DNA of 58,127 nucleotides from a virus, in the IMG/VR virus record IMGVR_UViG_3300038406_000088, positions 1 through 58,127 of that record; one strand, given 5' to 3'. Below, one piece after another: positions 1 to 58,127 of the stretch. The translations under genes were made by a program, and so were the position numbers. The notes under the pieces are model-generated. The model saw nothing but the letters and a program-made list of their open reading frames with translations. It was not told the DNA's origin and did no database searches. Position 1 is the first letter of the stretch. Each line of letters starts with the position of its first letter.

Positions 1-127
1 TATAGAGAGAACAATGCAAAGTATCCCTGCAATCCCTGCAATCCCTGCAAGGCGAAGCCCGAAATCCGGTTACAGAAAGTGAGAATTTTGCCGTGGCGAT
101 TCGAGATCTACGACAGCAGATGCCCGT
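1..127. repeat. Terminal overlap identical to 58001-58127 (circular-assembly overlap)
   Basis: Bases 1-127 are repeated exactly at 58001-58127. The length equals a common assembler k-mer size. Confidence 0.9.
24..50. repeat. 3 tandem copies of TCCCTGCAA (same locus as 58024-58050)
   Basis: The string atccctgcaatccctgcaatccctgcaa was read directly. It is the reverse orientation of the TTGCAGGGA repeats at 57722-57942. Confidence 0.9.
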
Positions 128-608
128 GGACGGCGAAGTCAGCGTGAGCCCTTGGGAGTCGATCCTCACCGAGGTACGCCGTTCGGCGTACCGAGCATCG
201 TGGGTCGATGATCGAGTCGAGCAGGAGGCGCAGCGCGAACGCGAGTTGGAAGCGCAGGCGCACGACTGGGACCCCAAAGACTTCGAGATTGCGCGAGCGA
301 GGCAGAGCAGGGAGCTACGGGAGTGGGTCAAGCTCAGCAGGGAAGAGCGCTCGCACGGAGCCCAGGTAGCCCGTGCAGCCGTCTCAGCGGGCCTCTCAGA
401 GCGCTACATCGAGTCGGTGCAGGCGGAGGCACGGAACATCGCGAGCGTGCTCCAGAGGGCCCTACAGGCGGCCGAACTGAGCGATGAGCAGTGGATGGCG
501 GCCACGGCGGAGTTGCGGGTGGGGCTCGCGGAGATGGGGCGCGAGTTGAGCGCAAGGCACTCAAGTATGGGCGGCCGGTTCCCGGAGCGCCCTGGGATCG
601 AATCTTGA
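93..608 (+). CDS. hypothetical protein (Arg/Glu-rich, helical)
   Basis: 171-aa ORF with a GTG start. It is the first gene downstream of the repeat/AT-rich region. No recognisable motif. Confidence 0.55.
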   Translation: MAIRDLRQQMPVDGEVSVSPWESILTEVRRSAYRASWVDDRVEQEAQRERELEAQAHDWDPKDFEIARARQSRELREWVKLSREERSHGAQVARAAVSAGLSERYIESVQAEARNIASVLQRALQAAELSDEQWMAATAELRVGLAEMGRELSARHSSMGGRFPERPGIES

Positions 609-760: not shown

Positions 761-1237
761 ATGAATAAGTATACACGCGATCAGGTCCGATTCTGGGATA
801 CTGTTCTCAAAACGGACACGTGTTGGTTGTGGAAGAAGCCACGTGAAGACGGCTACGGTCGGTTCTTCATGCAAGGCGGATTCCACCAGGCGCACCGAGT
901 GTCCTACGGGTGGGAGCACGGAGAAGTGCCGATCCACCTCGTGGTTGACCACTTGTGTCGAGTGCCCGCCTGTGTACGCCCCTCGCATCTAGAGCCGGTC
1001 ACCAATGCGGAGAACATGCGCAGGGCTGTACGTAAGCCACGCAGCACGGCTCCCAGCGTGGAAGAGCCCGCTGCCAAGCCCCAGCACAACGTGGGATCTA
1101 GGCCCCGGTACTGCACAGCGTGCCTGAAACCAGCTGCGGAGTGCGAGAACATTGTCAAGCGCGTATGTGCACCATGCCGTGAGGAGCACACAGCTAAGGC
1201 AATGGCAGCGCTCAACGCCCGCATGGGCGGTAGATAG
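761..1237 (+). CDS. HNH homing endonuclease
   Basis: Carries DTCWLW..GYGRF..AHRVSY..VDHLCRVPACVRPSHLEPVTNAENMRR, a typical HNH_3/AP2-type signature. Confidence 0.85.
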   Translation: MNKYTRDQVRFWDTVLKTDTCWLWKKPREDGYGRFFMQGGFHQAHRVSYGWEHGEVPIHLVVDHLCRVPACVRPSHLEPVTNAENMRRAVRKPRSTAPSVEEPAAKPQHNVGSRPRYCTACLKPAAECENIVKRVCAPCREEHTAKAMAALNARMGGR

Positions 1238-3699: not shown

Positions 3700-3965
3700 T
3701 ACTTCCCACCTTCTGCGGGTAGCTGCTTGAGTCGATAGTCGATCTCGCGCCACACCACGTTGAGCGCGTCAACGGCTCCGGTGCGGTACTTTCCACCTTT
3801 GGTGTTGGCCTGGTCGCGTTTGATGTCAATCCAGTCTTGCAGGGATTCAAGTTCGGAGCGGGTATCGTTCACTTCCCACCCCCGTTCGGCTTGGGGTTGC
3901 AGGTCGGGCAGAGCGAAGAGCAGGCTCCGCAGCGTGTGTTCGTCATGATCGTGTCCTCTCGTCAT
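3699..3965 (-). CDS. hypothetical protein
   Basis: ATG start at MTRGHDHDE. Confidence 0.5.
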   Translation of the reverse strand: MTRGHDHDEHTLRSLLFALPDLQPQAERGWEVNDTRSELESLQDWIDIKRDQANTKGGKYRTGAVDALNVVWREIDYRLKQLPAEGGK

Positions 3966-9250: not shown

Positions 9251-9835
9251 TTATTCGGATTGTTGCTTTTTCAGCCGCTGCTTTGCGTTCCATGCACGCT
9301 TTCGATCTAGCCTGCATGCTCTGCAATCCCTACCGCCGTTAGGTCGGCTGTACGTGTTTTCGGGGGTGTAAGCGTGCCCGTTGTCGCAGTGATCCTTGCG
9401 CGCGTTTTTCGCCGCGAAACTTTCACCGCGCATCATGTTTTCGTACGGCGTCACAGCTTCGAGGTGCAACGGGTTGCAGCATTTCCGGTTACGACACAGG
9501 TGGTCGAGCTCCATGCCCTCGGGGATTTTGCCCACAAGATGTTCGTATGAAAACCTGTGAGTGAGGATAGTCTTTGTTGCTGCTGTGAACATTGTCCCGT
9601 ACCCACCCGGGTTGGTACAGCCTGTCCAGTTCCAGCATGTTTCTGTCTTTTCGACACGAGTCATAAAGTGTTCGAACGTGATGCCGATGAACATCGGCTT
9701 AATCGGGGTCAGTTCTTTCCCCGTGTACTGCTGCTGATAATGACTGTTACACCAGCCCTTTGCCCACACGTCGCGTTGGCAACCGGAGAACGAGCAGGTA
9801 GACTTAGGCATATCGACTCCTTGTAAGTCGGTCAC
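9251..9835 (-). CDS. HNH homing endonuclease
   Basis: TCWNWTG..GYG..THRFSYE..LDHLCRNRKCCNPLHLEAVT plus Cys-rich ends. GC is visibly lower than the flanking sequence. Confidence 0.85.
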   Translation of the reverse strand: MTDLQGVDMPKSTCSFSGCQRDVWAKGWCNSHYQQQYTGKELTPIKPMFIGITFEHFMTRVEKTETCWNWTGCTNPGGYGTMFTAATKTILTHRFSYEHLVGKIPEGMELDHLCRNRKCCNPLHLEAVTPYENMMRGESFAAKNARKDHCDNGHAYTPENTYSRPNGGRDCRACRLDRKRAWNAKQRLKKQQSE

Positions 9836-9866: not shown

Positions 9867-11459
9867 TTGCTGTACCTAGGGTATCATGACCTCATGGATG
9901 CTTTCGGTTTGGATCTGGGTTCCGCCATCACGGATGCCTTTGATGATCTCACGAAAGCCAAAGTCGACTATGTGAATGACCCCGTAAGGTGGGCAGCGGA
10001 ACGCGGCAAGGCGCACCTGTGGTCAATGCAGAGAACCATCCTTGAGTCTGTTCGAGATAATCGGCGAACGGCAGTCCATGCCTCGCACTCAGTAGGTAAG
10101 TCCTATGTTGCCGCCATGGCCGCATGTTGGTGGATTGACTCTCATGTCCCGGGTGAGGCGTTTGTCCTAAGTTCTGCCCCTACGGCCGCGCAGGTACGCG
10201 CCGTCCTCTGGAGGACGATTAATCGTATTCATGCCAAAGCGGAGCTACCGGGAAGAATGAACCAAGTTGAATGGGTATTGCCTACTGGTTCCGACTCCGA
10301 AGAATTGGTAGCTATTGGGCGTAAACCTTCGGAACACTCCGAAGCTGCGTTCCAAGGGGTCCATGCCCGGTATGTTCTCGTGATTCTTGACGAGGCGAGC
10401 GGCGTCCCCGAATCGCTCTGGACGGCCGCCGAAAGTATAGCGAGCAACAAGAATGCGCGCATCTTGTGCATTGGTAATCCAGACCTCACATCAGGCCCTT
10501 TTGCGGACGCGTGTAAGCCCAGTAGCCCCTTTAACGTGCTGCACGTCGGGTATCAGCATTCCCCAGCCATGACCGGCGAGGATGTTCCGCAGCATGTGCT
10601 GGAAGAACTGATTTCCCCCGAATGGGTCGAAGACCGCAGACAGGCATGGGGGGAAGATTCCGCCCTATTTCAGGCAAAGTGCTTGGGGGAATTTCCGAGC
10701 GCATCAGCCGATCCATGGCGCGTGGTTCCCGAGGCGAACGCTGCGCAGTGCCGCTACATCGAACCGGCGTACAACCCCGATGCCGTACGCATCGGCGGGA
10801 TTGACGTTGGTGGTGGTGGTGACCGTACGGTCCTCGTGGAGCGCGTAGGGAGCGCTGTGCGCCGTATCGAGAGCTTCGCAGACACTGACCCCATGAAGAC
10901 GGTCGGCCGTTTGGCGAACCTGATCCAGGAGTGGAATCTTGAAAAGGTCAAGATCGACGTCGCGGGCCTGGGCTGGGGCATCGCAGGCCGATTGAGGGAA
11001 GTCCTCAAGGAGCGCGGGAGCAAGTGCACCGTCAAGGGGCTGAACTTCGCTTCCCGCTCAACACAGCCGAAGCGCTTCCTCAACTTGAGAGCAGAAGCGT
11101 GGTGGAACGGTCGCGAACTGTCACGAAACGAACTGTGGTCGTTGGCGAACCTTGATGACGACGCTATTGCCGAGCTGACCATGCCGCGCTATGAGATCGT
11201 AGACAGCTCGGGAAAGATCAAGATTGAAAAGAAAGATGAGGTGCGCGAACGCCTCGGGCGCTCCCCCGACATCGCCGACGCGCTGTTGCTCGCGTTCTAC
11301 GACGGGACCGGGAACGCAGAGGCTCACGACCCGAGGCAGGCGTACGCGGGTGCACGGCTCGATGAGGTCGCGGGGACGTACAGCCACTTCGGCGGCCCGC
11401 AGATCGAAGGCTTGCCCTTCTCGATTCCGACGCCGCTCGGTGGCCGTCTGACACGCTAA
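9867..11459 (+). CDS. terL: terminase large subunit
   Basis: Walker A-like HSVGKS and Walker B VLVILDEASG, with a C-terminal nuclease-like half. TTG start at 9867; an alternative ATG lies at 9894. Confidence 0.85.
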   Translation: MLYLGYHDLMDAFGLDLGSAITDAFDDLTKAKVDYVNDPVRWAAERGKAHLWSMQRTILESVRDNRRTAVHASHSVGKSYVAAMAACWWIDSHVPGEAFVLSSAPTAAQVRAVLWRTINRIHAKAELPGRMNQVEWVLPTGSDSEELVAIGRKPSEHSEAAFQGVHARYVLVILDEASGVPESLWTAAESIASNKNARILCIGNPDLTSGPFADACKPSSPFNVLHVGYQHSPAMTGEDVPQHVLEELISPEWVEDRRQAWGEDSALFQAKCLGEFPSASADPWRVVPEANAAQCRYIEPAYNPDAVRIGGIDVGGGGDRTVLVERVGSAVRRIESFADTDPMKTVGRLANLIQEWNLEKVKIDVAGLGWGIAGRLREVLKERGSKCTVKGLNFASRSTQPKRFLNLRAEAWWNGRELSRNELWSLANLDDDAIAELTMPRYEIVDSSGKIKIEKKDEVRERLGRSPDIADALLLAFYDGTGNAEAHDPRQAYAGARLDEVAGTYSHFGGPQIEGLPFSIPTPLGGRLTR

Positions 11460-34786: not shown

Positions 34787-35898
34787 TGGTCACCGCTGCC
34801 GACTTCGCAGAGCTTATCGCCGGATCCCATACCGCGCGTTTCCGCGCCACGCTCGTTGAGGGGTACCAGACCGGAAGCGATCCTTCCGGCCTGGCGGTTC
34901 GTGTCGTCAGCGGCGGGGTCGAATTCGACGCTTCGGCCGACATTCGAGCCACAGGCGGCGTGACTGTCGTGCAGGAATGGCCTACCGCTCGTGACCTGGG
35001 CTTCGCGCCGTACGGCAGTGAGGTGTTTCTCGCTCGTGGGGTCGAGACCGGTGCGGCGGGCGTGCTGTGGGCACCGCTCGGGTACTACCGGATCAGTGCC
35101 ACCACACAGTCTGATGCGGCCCGTGGCCCACTGTCGTTGGACCTTGAGGATCGCATGGCAACGATCATCGACAGCCGGTTCATGTCGCCGCGCCAGTGGC
35201 TCACTGGCACGCTGGTAGGCGACATCATCGATGAGGTTGTTCTTGAGGTGTACCCGGATGCGGTGATCGTCTGGGATGACGACTCCGATCAATCACAACT
35301 CGGACGCTCGTTGATCGCGGAGGAGTCTCGTCTAGAGATCATCAAGACGTTGGCTGACGGGCTTGGTAAAATCTTCTATTGGGATGAGATCGGGCGTCTC
35401 GTTTTCAAAGACATTCCCTCTGAAACAGACATCATCTGGACAGTGAACGCCGGTCATGACGGGGTCATGGTTGAGGCCAACCGGTCGCTGTCGCGAGAAC
35501 GCGTCTACAACGCGGTCGTTGTCACCGGTGAAGGTGCGGACCAACTCACCCCGGTTCGCGCGGTGTCTGTCAACGCTCAGGAGTCGAGCCCTACCTTCTT
35601 TGGTGGTCCGTTCGGGCGGATACCGCGCTTCTACTCTTCGTCGTTCATCACCACGCAGTCGCAGGCCGAAAACGCGGCGGTCAACCTCCTGCGGCAGACG
35701 CTCGGCGCACCGTACGATGTCGGCCTGTCTGCGGTACCCAACCCTGCCGTAAGACCGTATGACGTGATTCGAGTGGTGTACAACGACGGCACGCGGGAGA
35801 CGCACATCGTTGACCGCGCGTCGATTCCCTTCGATGTGTCATCTCCGATCGCGATCGCCACTCGGCAATCTACCATCATCCACGTGGGGGTTCTCTAA
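34786..35898 (+). CDS. minor tail protein
   Basis: TAATG overlap. Start at MVTAADFAEL. Confidence 0.55.
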   Translation: MVTAADFAELIAGSHTARFRATLVEGYQTGSDPSGLAVRVVSGGVEFDASADIRATGGVTVVQEWPTARDLGFAPYGSEVFLARGVETGAAGVLWAPLGYYRISATTQSDAARGPLSLDLEDRMATIIDSRFMSPRQWLTGTLVGDIIDEVVLEVYPDAVIVWDDDSDQSQLGRSLIAEESRLEIIKTLADGLGKIFYWDEIGRLVFKDIPSETDIIWTVNAGHDGVMVEANRSLSRERVYNAVVVTGEGADQLTPVRAVSVNAQESSPTFFGGPFGRIPRFYSSSFITTQSQAENAAVNLLRQTLGAPYDVGLSAVPNPAVRPYDVIRVVYNDGTRETHIVDRASIPFDVSSPIAIATRQSTIIHVGVL

Positions 35899-47580: not shown

Positions 47581-49384
47581 GCTTTTCCGCCCATCGCTTA
47601 GCTGTTGCCCCGCCCGCGGTAAGTGGGATGGACAACAGGCTGTCATCATTCATAACGTCTTTCATGGTCGCGATAACGTCTGAGACCTCGCTGTCGGGCA
47701 CATCTGCGATCACTTCGTCGTGCACCACCAGCGCAAGATAATCCCCGATGCCTGCTGCGTCCAACTGTAGGAGCGCGCCCTTCATGATCTCAGCAGCAAC
47801 GCCTTGGATCTGGTGGTTCACGAGCTGGTAGAACAGGTTCGGGTTGTGTTGTTGGAACCTTCGCCCGGTGAGCGGAGACTTCACGTACCCCACGCCATCC
47901 TCGCGGTACCGCTGCGAGGCGAGACGCTGAATCGTCTGCTGATGTGCGGGCACACCCGCATACGTGCCGTTGAAGTCAGCGGCAAGCTTCTCGATCTCGG
48001 CGAGCGGTCGCTTCGTGGTCGTCGCCAGCTTGTCGTTGCCCGCTCCGTACAGCGTGGCGTAGGTGTAGCTCTTCGTAAGGTTGCGCTGCGGACTCTTCTT
48101 GGTGATCGTCTCGTCCTGGTAGATCTTTTTCGTGAGCGCCACGAAAAAGTCTTCATCTGAGAGAAATGCCTCCCTAAGTCCTGGATCTCCCGAAAAGGAC
48201 GCCATTACCCTTAGCTCGATTTGATCGTAATCGAACAGGACAAACGTGCTATCAGGCGACGCAACGATGCAGTTTCGAGCGATCTTGCTCAGCGGGTCCG
48301 ACTCGTCCACTCGGGTGAGCTGTTGCAGGTTCGGGGATGAACTGCTCATACGGGCAGTTTTCACCCCAAACGCGCCTGCGGACTGCTCTTTGTACCCGAG
48401 TGTATTTATTGAAGTATGAATCCTCCCATCGAAGGATGAATACTCCAAAAACCTCTTAAGGTACGTCGAGTTGATCTTTTCCGCCTGCTTGCGTTGCTGC
48501 AAGAGCGCTGCCAACGGGTGGTCGATGCCCTCAAGCGCGAACTTGTCCAGCGACCACGCGCCGCCGTCCGTCCGCTTCCACAGCTTCACGCCGTCCGCAA
48601 TGAAGAGGTCGGTCACCTGCGTAGCCGAGCCGAGATCAATGCCGAACTCATCGAAGCCGCGCTTCGTGAGGTCGACGTGCAGTGCGTCTAGCTCGGTACG
48701 CTTCGCCTGGGTGTACTCGCGGTCGCAGGCTACGCCCTTCATCTCCATCTTGTCGGCCAGCCAGCCAGTTGCGAGTTCGAGGTCATAAGCCCTGGGTGCG
48801 ATAGCCATTACCGTGGGTGCATGATGCTCCCACAGCAACGCGGTAATCACGCAATCGAGTGCTGCATATTGCCAATACGCCGCACACGGACCGGTGGCAC
48901 TGATGGGTACCGTCGCCCACGTATACCCCCCAGAGTGCATCAAGGAGTCCAAAGAACCTTGCATTGCCGCCGCTCGCGGGTCAATGTGCTTCGCAGACTG
49001 CTGCTTGAGCCCGATCGACACGGACGGGTCAACGATGTGACACAGCATCATCGTGTCATCGGTCAGGTGCGGGGGCAGGTGGATGTCGTGGTTTCGGAGC
49101 ATCGCGAGATCGAAACGAACATTGTGGCCTACGAACCTCCCCTTGCGCGACCACCGGTCAATGATCTCCTCGACCAGTCCCTTCCAGCGGTCAATCGGGA
49201 TAGCCCAGCCGTCGCTAGCGGTCCCAAACTGCACGAGTCTTACCTTATCGCGCAATTTGTCAATTCCGGTCGATTCGCAGTCGACCGCCAAGCGCTCGCA
49301 GGTGAGTCCCGAAAGCCAATCGAGGCACGCCGCAACATCTTCGTACGTCTCCACCAAATGGAGACTAACCCCCTCAAGAGCCAT
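47570..49384 (-). CDS. polA: DNA polymerase I (family A) with 3'-5' exonuclease domain
   Basis: ExoI VDCESTG, motif A DYDQIELRV, motif B RNLTKSYTYATLYG, motif C VHDEV. Confidence 0.9.
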   Translation of the reverse strand: MALEGVSLHLVETYEDVAACLDWLSGLTCERLAVDCESTGIDKLRDKVRLVQFGTASDGWAIPIDRWKGLVEEIIDRWSRKGRFVGHNVRFDLAMLRNHDIHLPPHLTDDTMMLCHIVDPSVSIGLKQQSAKHIDPRAAAMQGSLDSLMHSGGYTWATVPISATGPCAAYWQYAALDCVITALLWEHHAPTVMAIAPRAYDLELATGWLADKMEMKGVACDREYTQAKRTELDALHVDLTKRGFDEFGIDLGSATQVTDLFIADGVKLWKRTDGGAWSLDKFALEGIDHPLAALLQQRKQAEKINSTYLKRFLEYSSFDGRIHTSINTLGYKEQSAGAFGVKTARMSSSSPNLQQLTRVDESDPLSKIARNCIVASPDSTFVLFDYDQIELRVMASFSGDPGLREAFLSDEDFFVALTKKIYQDETITKKSPQRNLTKSYTYATLYGAGNDKLATTTKRPLAEIEKLAADFNGTYAGVPAHQQTIQRLASQRYREDGVGYVKSPLTGRRFQQHNPNLFYQLVNHQIQGVAAEIMKGALLQLDAAGIGDYLALVVHDEVIADVPDSEVSDVIATMKDVMNDDSLLSIPLTAGGATAKRWAEKRDI

Positions 49385-53907: not shown

Positions 53908-53972
53908 CGCTACGCAACACTAGCACATGGTGTAAGCTGGTGGAACAACGACCAACGATGAAAGGATGCAGT

Positions 53973-54857
53973 GTGGCTACAGTCCCATTCTCAGATACAA
54001 GTGCAGGCGGGCAGGCTCCCAGCGCGGGAGCGGTGGCATACGCGTGCTCGCAACTCGGTTTCAAGGTGTTTCCTTTGGTACCGAACTCGAAGAGGCCAGC
54101 GATTGAGGGCTGGAAGGCGAAAGCCACGTCCGACCTTGACCAGATTCGAGAGTGGTGGGCCGGTGGCGAGTTCACCGGCTGCCCGGTCGGCATCGCCACC
54201 GGCCCTGGCTCGGGCGTGTGGATCTTGGACATTGATACCAAGCACGGGATCAACGGATTCGAGGTGTTCCACGACCTCGCGAAGGCGAACGGCGCTGGCG
54301 TCGAAGAGTTCACCCGAACCATGACCGTAGCCACTCCCTCAGGTGGGGCTCACCTGTATTTCCGGTGGGACGAGACAGCGGACGCCGAAGGCGGCGTGCG
54401 CAGCGACTCGTCCGGTCACCTGGCACCAAACCTGGATGTGAAGGGCATCGGAGGACTCGTGAAAGCTCCCGGCTGCGGCGGCTACCAAATCGTTCCCAGG
54501 GGCGGCATTCGGAGTACCGTTATCACCCCCGCTCCCGAGTGGCTGGTGAAGCTCACGCGCAAGCCGCCCGCCGAGCAGTACGCCAACGAGCCGCAGTATG
54601 AACCAGGCAGCAACGCCGCTGAGCGCGAAGCGAACCGCATCCTTGACCGCATGGGGGAAGCGGCTCCCGGCACCCGCAACAAGGCGCTGAACCTGGCGTC
54701 GTACCTCCTCGGGAAGACCGGCGTCATGAGCAGGGATGAGGCTTGGAGACAAGTTCGGACCACCATGTTCTCCATTGGCGCGAACGACAGTGAGGCGGCT
54801 CAGCGGCAGTCTTTCGAGTCCGCTTGGGCGTCGGGAGTGCGGGACCGGAACGTGTGA
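53973..54857 (+). CDS. bifunctional primase-polymerase (Prim-Pol)
   Basis: FPL.PNSKRP, GVWILDIDTKHG and TPSGGAHLYF motifs. GTG start after a GAAAGGA ribosome-binding site. Confidence 0.7.
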   Translation: MATVPFSDTSAGGQAPSAGAVAYACSQLGFKVFPLVPNSKRPAIEGWKAKATSDLDQIREWWAGGEFTGCPVGIATGPGSGVWILDIDTKHGINGFEVFHDLAKANGAGVEEFTRTMTVATPSGGAHLYFRWDETADAEGGVRSDSSGHLAPNLDVKGIGGLVKAPGCGGYQIVPRGGIRSTVITPAPEWLVKLTRKPPAEQYANEPQYEPGSNAAEREANRILDRMGEAAPGTRNKALNLASYLLGKTGVMSRDEAWRQVRTTMFSIGANDSEAAQRQSFESAWASGVRDRNV

Positions 54858-55950: not shown

Positions 55951-55980
55951 GAAACCCCCGGGTGTGAGCCCGGGGGTTTC
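55951..55980 (+). terminator. hairpin terminator
   Basis: GAAACCCCCGGG-6 nt-CCCGGGGGTTTC forms a 12-bp stem. Confidence 0.65.
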
Positions 55981-56032
55981 CCATCCCGCTGTACTTCATG
56001 CGTCGACTGCAACGACAACGAAAGGAACGTAC

Positions 56033-57688
56033 GTGGACAACGATACCACGCCATCGAACAACGGCAACATGGGCAAAATGAGCGAATTGGACCTGCAACA
56101 ATACATGCTCGGGGAACTCGCACCGAAGCAGCCCGCCGAACCCGTGCCCACCAGCACCGGTGGTGACCAGCTCACCATGACCCCTGACGGGCATCTCACC
56201 ACGCACATCACCATCCCTGACACGCTCAAACTCCTCCCTCGGTGCCTCGACTTCGGCGAGCCCGTTCCTGGACCCCACAGGCCGGGAGCGGTCGCGCGTC
56301 TCATCGCGCACATGCTCGCCGATGACGAGGGTGTGCACCTCAGGCACTGGAGGGACGGTTGGTACATCTGGCGGGACCAGCGAACCGGAGGGCGATACCG
56401 ACCCTTCGGGCAGGTCGACAACAAGTACGCCGTTCCCGACATGGTTCGTGCGCTCATGGACAACGCCACCTATCAGCACGAGACGCAGCGAAAAGGCGTA
56501 GAGGTCAAAGACTGGGACCCCAACAACCGGAGTGTCAAAGAGGTCACCGACGCTCTCGCCGCTGCCTCTCGCCCCGATGAGACCATGTCCGCAGGAACGT
56601 GGATCGGCAACGACGCCGCGACGCGGGAACTCGAAACACCAGGCAACGAGGTCACCTGCGTCGCCAACGGGTTGCTGTGGTGTCCCACGTCCGGAGGCGC
56701 GGACGCTCGCCAGCTCATGCCGCACACACCCGCGTTCTTCACCGATGCCGCCGTGGCCGTCGACTACGATCCCGAAGCCGAATGCCCGCTGTGGCTGAAA
56801 TTCCTGGACGAGCTGTGGCCTGACGACCACGCCTCGCAGCGGCTCCTGCAGGAATGGTTCGGATACGTCCTCACACGCTCGACATCGCTGCAGAAGATCC
56901 TGGTCCTTGTCGGGCCGCGCCGTTGCGGCAAGGGGACAGCCGCGTGGGTGCTTGAGGAACTGCTCGGCGGTCGCAGCGAAGTCGACCATCCGCTCATGTC
57001 CACGTTCGGCGACAAGTACGGGCTGTCTAACATGCTCGGGAAGCGCCTTGCCATCTTCGGTGACGCGCGCATGGAGAAGTCCGAGGCGTCGATCGTGGAA
57101 AAGCTCCTCATGATCTCGGGTGAGGACCCCGTGACCGTGGAACGCAAGTACCTCTCGCCGGTCATCACCAAACTCGACGTGCGTCTCATGATCATGTCCA
57201 ACTCCATGCCCGACCTCAGAGACACCACGGGCGCGCTGGCCGGTCGATTCCTGCCGCTGCCCATCAGGATCGAAGGGTTCTACGGCAAGGAGGACCGAAA
57301 CCTGAAGCACAAGCTCGGGTCGGAACTCACCGGCATTCTCAACTGGGCGCTGGAAGGCGCGGACCGGCTGTGGGCCAACGACGGGAAGTTCACCGTGGGG
57401 GAGAACGTTAAGGACGCCATGAGCAAGGCCGACCGTTCCGGTAGCCCGCTTAAGGCGTTCGTCATGGATCGGCTTGTGTTCGAGGCGGGCTCCGCAGCCA
57501 CCAAGGACAGCGTGTACTGGGCTTACGAGGCGTGGTGCGAGGCGGAGGGATACCACAAGAAGGGCAAAAACGTGTTCTTCCGGGAACTGTTCGCCATCTA
57601 CCCGAGCCAGCTCGGCGACGGGAGGCACACGATCCAGGGGAAGCAGCAGACGGTGCTCACCGGGGCGTATCTTAGCTCCGAATTCTGA
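56033..57688 (+). CDS. P4/D5-type primase-associated SF3 helicase
   Basis: Walker A GPRRCGKGT and Walker B-like LAIFGDARME. GTG start after a GAAAGGAA ribosome-binding site, downstream of the hairpin. Confidence 0.7.
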   Translation: MDNDTTPSNNGNMGKMSELDLQQYMLGELAPKQPAEPVPTSTGGDQLTMTPDGHLTTHITIPDTLKLLPRCLDFGEPVPGPHRPGAVARLIAHMLADDEGVHLRHWRDGWYIWRDQRTGGRYRPFGQVDNKYAVPDMVRALMDNATYQHETQRKGVEVKDWDPNNRSVKEVTDALAAASRPDETMSAGTWIGNDAATRELETPGNEVTCVANGLLWCPTSGGADARQLMPHTPAFFTDAAVAVDYDPEAECPLWLKFLDELWPDDHASQRLLQEWFGYVLTRSTSLQKILVLVGPRRCGKGTAAWVLEELLGGRSEVDHPLMSTFGDKYGLSNMLGKRLAIFGDARMEKSEASIVEKLLMISGEDPVTVERKYLSPVITKLDVRLMIMSNSMPDLRDTTGALAGRFLPLPIRIEGFYGKEDRNLKHKLGSELTGILNWALEGADRLWANDGKFTVGENVKDAMSKADRSGSPLKAFVMDRLVFEAGSAATKDSVYWAYEAWCEAEGYHKKGKNVFFRELFAIYPSQLGDGRHTIQGKQQTVLTGAYLSSEF

Positions 57689-57720
57689 CTACGCAGAGTG
57701 ACGAAAACGGGGGTCGGTAC

Positions 57721-57763
57721 CTTGCAGGGATCGGGGGTCGATCCCTGCAAGCTATCCCTGCAA
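57721..57763. repeat. 13-bp-arm palindrome CTTGCAGGGATCG/CGATCCCTGCAAG plus one further ATCCCTGCAA
   Basis: Read directly. Confidence 0.9.
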
Positions 57764-57856
57764 GTTGGGGTGTTTGGCTTCAGAGAGTTATCGATTCTAA
57801 GCTGTATGTGTTGTACTGAAAAGACTACATAGCGTAGTCGAGCTGATTTTGGGGCC

Positions 57857-57942
57857 TTGCAGGGATGCTTGCAGGGATACTGCAGGGATGCTTGCAGGGA
57901 TAAAACACCCTCTGACCTGGTACTTGCAGGGATTGCAGGGAT
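57857..57942. repeat. six TTGCAGGGAT repeats (one is CTGCAGGGAT)
   Basis: Copies start at 57857, 57869, 57880, 57892, 57924 and 57933. The first four are spaced 11-12 bp apart. Confidence 0.9.
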
Positions 57943-58000
57943 AAAACCTAACCAGTTCAGGAGTGTGTAAATATACAGTGTACGGAGTAGTGTTGTTCTG

Positions 58001-58127
58001 TATAGAGAGAACAATGCAAAGTATCCCTGCAATCCCTGCAATCCCTGCAAGGCGAAGCCCGAAATCCGGTTACAGAAAGTGAGAATTTTGCCGTGGCGAT
58101 TCGAGATCTACGACAGCAGATGCCCGT
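58001..58127. repeat. terminal overlap identical to 1-127
   Basis: Exact 127-bp identity with the window start. Confidence 0.9.
58023..58050. repeat. three tandem inverted-orientation copies (ATCCCTGCAA-TCCCTGCAA-TCCCTGCAA)
   Basis: Read directly. They follow the roughly 37% GC stretch at 57961-58020. Confidence 0.9.

Follow-up and report, generated by a model that had tools for sequence, protein, structure and literature searches.

A probable replication origin of the self-loading SF3 initiator-helicase type in an undescribed family of soil phages

The virus record IMGVR_UViG_3300038406_000088 of IMG/VR (58,127 nt, all of it analysed and referred to below as the window) contains, between a gene for a superfamily 3 (SF3) helicase and the next rightward gene (gene 93-608, product gp93-608), a non-coding interval that is filled with short repeats in both orientations. 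An earlier note, made from the letters of the window, had taken this interval for an iteron-type replication origin, with a packaging site or a multi-operator switch as alternatives, and this raises the question of what the array does and which protein reads it. Our comparison of the locus with its relatives indicates that positions 57689-58092 are very probably a phage replication origin, of the type in which an SF3 helicase serves as initiator and loads itself. Support for the origin reading comes from the conservation of the array layout, from co-variation of the repeats with the wing of the helicase, from the homology of this helicase to PriRep of staphylococcal pathogenicity island 5 (SaPI5) and from a minimum of the GC skew at the array. 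Elements of this kind are familiar; the soil phages that carry this one form a family not described before.

Architecture of the repeat array

The first 127 nt of the window are an exact copy of the last (1-127 and 58001-58127), and the contig is thus a circle of 58,000 bp in which 57689-58092 form a single unbroken non-coding stretch of 404 bp, as the earlier note had described in rounder figures. When up to one mismatch is allowed, TTGCAGGGAT is found 16 times in the window, as against 2.5 ± 1.8 expected, and none of 100 shuffles reached 16. Three of these matches are the overlap counted twice, leaving 13 unique ones: the 12 copies of the array, all within 57722-58050, and one lone copy. The array begins 34 bp past the helicase stop codon (Table 1). 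Its first two copies form an exact palindrome with 13-bp arms (57721-57733 pairing with 57739-57751) and a 5-nt loop, which folds at -17 kcal/mol as single-stranded DNA (z = -5), and a further reverse copy follows. Beyond this distal group lie four forward copies, the third of which (CTGCAGGGAT) carries the only mismatch, then two overlapping forward copies, an AT-rich core and three reverse copies. Around the core, the copies closest to it pair without mismatch as an inverted repeat of 20 nt (57923-42 with 58032-51). Nearly all of this had been read correctly from the window before, including the count of twelve, the palindrome with its extra reverse copy, the four forward copies at 11-12 bp, the overlapping pair and the AAAAC that follows two of the forward copies; in case of the three reverse copies, number and 9-bp spacing stand, whilst the start given (58024) was one base off.

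Several features expected of an origin of this type are found together: an SF3 helicase gene directly 5' of the array, a predicted winged helix at the C-terminus of its product, a primase gene further upstream, and 12 repeat copies of which six forward and three reverse ones converge on the core. We propose this core as the DNA-unwinding element. No 80-bp window of the genome has a lower GC content than the one beginning at 57941 (0.36), and the one at 48401 equals it, so that the description of the core as the AT-richest part of the genome is right except that it shares this place. Within the core, TTGTTCT (57993-99) and AGAACAA (58008-14) form an inverted repeat with 7-bp arms, one base pair longer than had been noted, and an AATGCAA box (58013-58019) marks its end. 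The cumulative GC skew, a plot that had been suggested for this locus, has its minimum at the array (67 in raw form, just right of the reverse repeats, or 57,266 when detrended) and its maximum at 35,539, a pattern that fits bidirectional replication from the array.

On this basis, a course of initiation can be proposed. The helicase would recognise the 10-bp repeats via the beta-hairpin wing of its C-terminal winged helix, with the left (four plus two forward) and right (three reverse) copies nucleating helicase assemblies on both sides of the 80-bp core. The core would then melt and the helicase load itself, after which the separate primase-polymerase (Prim-Pol) would prime synthesis by the family-A DNA polymerase of the phage. 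Initiation would be bidirectional.

Conservation of the layout and turnover of the repeat

Relatives were collected by scanning IMG/VR with the helicase, which gave the near-identical loci L001-L003 as well as L004-L013 and L015 at 52-62% identity, and by exact-protein look-ups, which gave ten more (L053-L062). All 22 relatives (50-97% helicase identity) keep Prim-Pol, helicase, array and a gp93-608 homologue as far as their contigs extend, with a non-coding interval of 340-520 bp. Nearly every interval follows one plan. It starts with a box at the helicase stop codon and one forward copy followed usually by two reverse copies, that is, the palindrome plus one; it continues with four forward copies at 11-13 bp, a box resembling CTCTGACCTG and two forward copies 9 bp apart; and it ends with an AT-rich gap closing in AATGCAA, one to four reverse copies and a second box upstream of the next gene. 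The spacing of 11-13 bp is seen in most of the 22 loci, and the block of four is degenerate in L011, L053 and L062. Of the 22 loci tabulated, 21 have a core gap of 79-94 bp with 29-46% GC; the exception is L055, where the repeat is nearly palindromic and its orientation cannot be called.

As to whether related phages conserve the repeats, a point raised by the earlier note, array and layout are kept in 22 of 22 relatives and the repeat sequence itself turns over. About nine types occur: TTGCAGGGAT in the window, L003 and L061; GTGCAGGGAT in L005-L010, L013 and L015, with kTGCAGGGAT in L058; TGTCCAGGGAT in L057; GGGTCAGGGT and GGTCAkGG in L059 and L062; TGTCCGGGGT in L004 and L056; TGTCyGGGAT in L012; TGTTCCGGGA in L011 and L053; GTGCCGGGAT in L054; and GATCCGGGAT in L055 and L060. 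Such persistence of copy number, spacing and orientation under a changing sequence is the mark of a cis site whose reader protein co-evolves with it. Among more distant loci (26-41% helicase identity), opposed arrays of locus-specific repeats follow the helicase stop codon in about 12 of 28, and the design thus seems to be general for this helicase family.

Further elements of the interval are conserved. The AATGCAA box is nearly invariant in the relatives whatever their repeat type, the same independence of repeat type holds for the box CTCTGACCTG, and in the clade of L005 the AT-rich core is conserved in sequence too (TAGAACATATGTA...CATAGAATGTAGAAC). This suggests that the two boxes and the conserved core hold a promoter, a priming site or a site for a host factor inside the origin. 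In addition, two direct copies of a box of ~24 bp (consensus GAAATCnGnTTACnGAnaGTGAc) stand on either side of the whole array and are kept in all 22 relatives irrespective of repeat type. Scored with a position weight matrix for which 22 loci supplied the right-hand boxes, these left and right bracket boxes are the sole two good matches in the genome (Table 1), the next-best site reaching 9.5 bits. The left box overlaps the helicase stop codon in differing frames and is thus conserved as DNA or RNA and not as protein. Behind the distal palindrome there is a third, weaker copy (cAGAGaGTgA).

The helicase wing as candidate reader of the repeats

Residues 428-574 of the helicase were modelled with AlphaFold2 using 55 homologues. 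The last ~80 residues, predicted with a local distance difference score (pLDDT) above 90, have the topology H-E-H-H-E-E of a winged helix. The best match in Foldseek is the RFX DNA-binding domain (8ZJR_M, E 1.9e-4; 1DP7_P, 1.6e-3); weaker fold matches are the C-terminal part of the African swine fever virus PrimPol-helicase and ORC/Cdc6 winged helices, and a weak one is 1KA8, by its PDB title the P4 origin-binding domain (E 0.32, 26% identity over 58 columns). In RFX1, the wing and not the helix reads the major groove (PMC4333399). A helix segment, KGKNVFFR(D/E)L, hardly varies in 21 of 23 loci; it is shared by every repeat type other than those of L059 and L062. The near-invariance of this segment, together with the position of the residues linked to specificity in the hairpin (see below), fits a reading of the repeat by an RFX-like wing.

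For the connection between repeat and helicase, L011 amounts to a natural experiment. Its helicase is 100% identical to those of L005 and L006 across the ATPase core, and over the final ~110 residues identity falls to 60-80%. In the DNA, the divergence begins ~300 nt ahead of the stop codon and spans the repeats as well, its right edge coinciding with the right bracket box; the AT-rich core is about 88-90% identical and the downstream gene mostly 80-98%. The downstream protein of L011 departs from that of L006 only where it resembles that of L007, which has the other repeat type.

We then compared 15 loci with CAGGG repeats to eight with CCGGG repeats (23 loci including the window), scanning 1470 alignment columns (665 of them variable and ungapped) from Prim-Pol (370), helicase (673), gp93-608 (174) and the upstream leftward gene (253). 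Only two columns separate the classes, both in the helicase: R554 (R vs K; 57623-57625) and T563 (Q/T vs P; 57650-57652). Prim-Pol, gp93-608 and the upstream gene gave zero separating columns in the same scan. At least seven class switches fall on the neighbour-joining tree of the helicase core, in which the CCGGG loci occupy at least four separate clades, and when class labels were shuffled, 496 of 500 shuffles gave zero separating columns and one gave two or more. R554 and T563 correspond to residues 127 and 136 of the model, which lie on the paired wing strands 124-130 and 133-143; judging from the strand register, they should be cross-strand neighbours.

Three repeat types were moreover predicted from the wing sequences of database homologues and recorded before the corresponding DNA was fetched, and all three predictions held: GKLVPML for TGTTCCGGGA (L053), GRKPAL for TGTCCGGGGT (L056) and GKQQTTL for TTGCAGGGAT (L061). 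The last of these loci carries the exact repeat of the window at only 56% overall helicase identity. Taken together, the co-variation points to the helicase as the likely reader of the repeats, rather than a separate initiator, and suggests that it binds its own repeats specifically.

A more far-reaching interpretation is that the family represents a natural set of about nine distinct origin/initiator specificities, which would have arisen by cassette swapping, RFX-like wing reading and a two-residue code. The swapped cassette would comprise the C-terminal wing of the helicase and the array up to the right bracket box, exchanged among near-identical replication modules; in the code, R554 with Q/T563 would read C-A-GGG and K554 with P563 would read C-C-GGG; and this origin type would possess a further, previously undescribed cis element in the two 24-bp bracket boxes. 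We offer this interpretation as a whole only tentatively, with chances that we place somewhat short of even. If it is true, switching of specificity could allow co-infecting relatives to avoid competition for, or hijack by, each other's initiators.

Comparison with known origins

The closest parallel is found in the SaPIs, where pri lies upstream of rep and the origin immediately downstream of rep, where the origin holds 6-12 repeats and an AT-rich centre with at least two repeats per side in opposite directions, and where the C-terminal winged helix of Rep binds the repeats, origin binding and melting proceeding without a requirement for ATP (PMC9371898). The phage locus shares the order of primase, SF3 helicase and origin 3' of the helicase, the opposed repeats around an AT-rich centre, the winged helix as proposed reader and the matched specificity of repeat and helicase. 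Its helicase is also a detectable homologue, at low identity, of SaPI5 PriRep (PriRep5, 7OLA), the structure cited in the paper on the self-loading SaPI Rep helicase (PMC9371898). Since every feature of this description that can be checked in sequence is present, the locus fits the SaPI type of origin. There are differences nonetheless: the SaPI repeats are penta- or hexanucleotides and those here 10 bp long; the distal group of three repeats with its 13-bp-arm palindrome and the two conserved 24-bp boxes that flank the array are extra; three small genes stand between Prim-Pol and helicase; and the carrier is a 58-kb tailed phage with its own family-A DNA polymerase and not a satellite.

The helicase belongs to the same family as P4 alpha (Pox_D5, with "P4 family primase" among the names of its homologues), and both have, here by prediction, a C-terminal winged helix for short repeats, 1KA8 having been recovered by the fold search, if weakly. 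Primase and helicase form one protein in P4, which depends on two separated cis sites (ori and crr), whereas a single compact array and a separate Prim-Pol gene are present here; several distant homologues of the helicase do have a fused Prim-Pol (P0059, P0075, P0087, P0108). The lone exact copy of TTGCAGGGAT at 3837-3846 (+), 3.8 kb from the array within the leftward block of small genes, was considered as a second, crr-like site and rejected: across 21 loci, 9-mers of a locus's own repeat occur outside the arrays five times against 2.6 expected, and they sit at non-homologous positions, for which reasons we treat this copy as chance.

The origins of SV40 large T antigen and papillomavirus E1 likewise place inverted short sites beside an AT-rich melting segment, with an SF3 helicase as its own initiator. 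The perfect 20-nt inverted repeat found here would fit two opposed oligomers, which is an analogy of logic only, as the origin-binding domains are unrelated and N-terminal in those proteins and the proposed one here is a C-terminal winged helix. Finally, iteron origins of theta plasmids and lambda (RepA/pi/TrfA; O) share with the phage locus clustered, phased repeats beside an AT-rich unwinding element, as well as the co-evolution of initiator and repeat specificity and their exchange as a module. Their initiators are not helicases and recruit host DnaB, usually with DnaA, and their direct repeats measure 17-22 bp, lying inside the O gene in lambda; the repeats described here are 10 bp long and occur in both orientations, and specificity maps to the helicase. 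No Rep_3-, RepA- or O-like initiator was found among the about 30 open reading frames (ORFs) scanned, which cover part of the genome, and no DnaA boxes were identified, although no systematic search was made for them.

Objections and alternative explanations

Some observations weigh against the origin interpretation or loosen its support. The case is built from sequence comparison and predicted structure, from which we infer binding and initiation. The co-varying codons lie just 70-100 bp from the array, so that co-transfer by recombination could give the correlation without function. Genes change direction close to the extremes of the GC skew, and its minimum is thus confounded with gene orientation. 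The core, the CTCTGACCTG and AATGCAA boxes and the bracket boxes are all conserved, and the region thus does more than bind the helicase, a promoter being one possibility. Lastly, the linearisation point of the contig (58001 = 1) falls inside the AT-rich core; a break somewhere in the array interval has a probability of about 0.7% by chance, and this one may be such a coincidence or hint at a coverage discontinuity such as a physical end. As regards hitch-hiking, three points argue for function instead: only two neighbouring wing residues correlate with repeat class, the N-terminus of gp93-608 is equally close to the array and shows no correlation, and the pair K554/P563 turns up repeatedly in C-terminal domains with little else in common (L004/L056, L012, L011, L060).

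Among other functions, an operator array, through which the helicase (by autoregulation) or another repressor would control regional transcription and gene 93-608, appears unlikely to be the main role of the locus. The array does lie between two co-oriented genes, the right bracket box immediately precedes the ribosome-binding site or start codon of gene 93-608, and the core is conserved in sequence in a promoter-like manner beyond mere AT-richness; initiators that bind repeats commonly autoregulate too. These points have to be set against the consensus scan, in which no sigma-70-like promoter was found on the + strand, against the single copy outside the array, which is no more than chance and unlike dispersed operator/stoperator systems, and against the arrangement of opposed repeat sets around an 80-bp AT-rich gap 3' of an SF3 helicase, which is the design of the SaPI origin. 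A regulatory side-role would in any case be compatible with origin function. The variant contemplated in the earlier note, a multi-operator for gene 93-608, is disfavoured as far as binding by the gene's own product is concerned, for gp93-608 shows no co-variation and is modelled as a plain helical hairpin. That the locus serves packaging, as pac, as cos or as the edge of a direct terminal repeat, with the repeats bound by the small terminase subunit (TerS), we regard as very unlikely. Terminase recognition regions do typically hold repeated protein-binding sites, the assembler break point within the core would suit a physical end, and no TerS was identified in the ORFs scanned with Pfam and PHROGs, including those upstream of the gene for the large terminase subunit (TerL). 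Arthrobacter phage Molivia, among the listed relatives of TerL (34-39% identity), even has a direct terminal repeat of 1,467 bp at the equivalent junction of gene blocks; Molivia, however, has no homologue of helicase, Prim-Pol or gp93-608 and shares TerL (34%) alone, and, although cultured and of known ends, was set aside as uninformative for the origin. Against packaging stand the co-variation of the repeats with the helicase wing, the distance of 9.8 kb to TerL, the lack of a TerS beside the array, the differing linearisation points of near-complete relatives of 59-63 kb, and the adjacent gp93-608, which shows neither co-variation nor a DNA-binding fold nor a TerS-like match.

Even less can be said for a parC-like partition centromere of an extrachromosomal prophage, which we deem highly improbable. 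R1 parC consists of two sets of repeats spaced by ~11 bp around a promoter core, and the spacing of 11-12 bp of the four direct repeats and the two-sided layout recall this design; yet no ParA-, ParM-, ParB- or ParR-like gene was found among the about 30 ORFs scanned (Pfam/PHROGs), which include all those flanking the array, gp93-608 is modelled as neither a ribbon-helix-helix nor a helix-turn-helix fold, the partner in specificity is the helicase, and no integrase or lysogeny function was seen in a genome that was not exhaustively scanned. That the repeats are incidental, a hairpin terminator with expanded simple repeats of no sequence-specific function, has a negligible probability in our view: the palindrome near the helicase stop codon does fold strongly, as given above, but no T-run follows it, and although the sequence has turned over completely, nearly all 22 relatives keep copy number, spacing and orientation, which would not be expected of neutral repeats.

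An origin read by the adjacent helicase thus accounts best for the locus; that an origin should lie beside a helicase gene is unsurprising and in line with what is expected. What is gained is the placement of an origin for a large family of phages of 57-64 kb, uncultured, probably actinobacterial and without close relative in phage databases, with the initiator named from sequence alone. It comes with a residue-to-base prediction, which relates helicase positions 554 and 563 to repeat position 5: the double exchange R554K/T563P is predicted to shift the preference to TTGCCGGGAT. If confirmed, this would amount to a wing-mediated recognition code for SF3 initiator-helicases and to a panel of potentially orthogonal origin/initiator pairs. 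The site also offers a natural zero point for coordinates and a reference for coverage-based estimates of replication in metagenomes.

Genomic context

The contig is the genome of a tailed phage, the features of which are collected in Table 1. The rightward block around the array holds, in this order, Prim-Pol, three small ORFs, the SF3 helicase, the array, gene 93-608 and an HNH endonuclease. The identities given earlier to Prim-Pol and helicase agree with their Pfam and PHROG matches; the helicase matches PHROG "DNA primase" families at 1e-59, and among solved structures its sequence comes closest to 7OLA (E 3.7e-8). The 123 homologues of gp93-608 are all named "hypothetical protein", it is without a Pfam domain, and a tblastn search of the phage collection gave no matches. 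Its AlphaFold2 model is a long three-helix hairpin or coiled coil with generic coiled-coil matches only in Foldseek. As a repeat-binding protein or TerS it was rejected on account of this fold, the lack of a co-varying column and the lack of a TerS-like match; it may be an accessory factor associated with the origin.

Table 1. Coordinates of the repeat array, its associated elements and neighbouring genes in the window.
Feature	Position	Strand	Remarks
Prim-Pol	53940-54857	+	Pfam PF09250, E 2.9e-27; syntenic in every relative reaching far enough upstream
SF3 helicase (D5/P4-alpha/SaPI-Rep-like)	55964-57688	+	574 aa; Pfam DUF5906 (4e-14), D5_N, Pox_D5
C-terminal winged-helix domain (predicted)	57446-57685	+	about residues 495-574; AlphaFold2 and Foldseek
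Left bracket box GAATTCTGACTACGCAGAGTGACG	57680-57703	+	overlaps helicase stop codon; matrix score 21.1 bits
Distal repeat group	57722-57763		forward 57722-31; reverse 57741-50, 57754-63; motif search
Four forward repeats	57857-57901	+	57857-66, 57869-78, 57880-89, 57892-901; spacing 12/11/12 bp
Box CTCTGACCTG	57910-57919	+	between the four and the two forward repeats; consensus t.TgA.CTG over 22 loci
Two overlapping forward repeats	57924-57942	+	57924-33, 57933-42; 9-bp spacing
AT-rich core	57943-58022		80 bp, 38% GC; between last forward and first reverse copy
Three reverse repeats	58023-58050 (= window 23-50)	-	58023-32, 58032-41, 58041-50; 9-bp spacing
Right bracket box GAAATCCGGTTACAGAAAGTGAGA	58061-58084 (= window 61-84)	+	just 5' of gene 93-608; matrix score 40.9 bits
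Gene 93-608	93-608	+	171 aa; after array in every relative with sequence that far
HNH endonuclease	761-1237	+	after gp93-608; undetected in 12 compared relatives, though L061 carries one
HNH endonuclease	9251-9835	-	directly upstream of TerL, opposite strand
TerL	9867-11459		PHROG search; 9.8 kb from array

The HNH gene at 761-1237 was considered as a packaging HNH and rejected, given its distribution in the relatives and the presence of the second HNH gene; both look like mobile homing endonucleases and not like packaging factors. The minus strand at 37-50 kb encodes the family-A DNA polymerase, an SNF2 helicase, a PD-(D/E)XK nuclease, AAA_24 and DUF669 proteins and an FtsK-like protein. A DNA-level search of the phage reference collection with the genome gave no match, the best helicase match there being 33% identical. 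Names from Mycobacterium and Streptomyces occur among the distant helicase homologues, and soil and farmland metagenomes are the source of the relatives; the host may plausibly be an actinobacterium. A search for known RNA families returned only a sub-threshold chance match to a plant microRNA family, and terminator-like sites in the consensus scan were weak only.

Some smaller observations complete the description. The genome is organised in four alternating transcription blocks, the minus-strand ones covering 37-53.7 kb and 1.4-6.4 kb; the block bearing the origin (53.9 kb to 1.2 kb) is short and lies between a divergent and a convergent junction, and the skew maximum at 35,539 is near the convergent junction at about 37 kb. 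An overlap of 127 nt equals a common maximum k-mer size of assemblers, and the contig of L057 likewise ends within its own forward repeat block. In L059 and L062, a GC-rich hairpin with a T-run, in the manner of a classical intrinsic terminator, stands between the left box and the first repeats, within ~60 bp of the former, a place at which the window has the repeat palindrome only. L059 further carries, shortly downstream of its origin region (L059:5410-5631), a small gene with a Pfam match to Acb2_Tad1_hairpin, an anti-defence "sponge" family.

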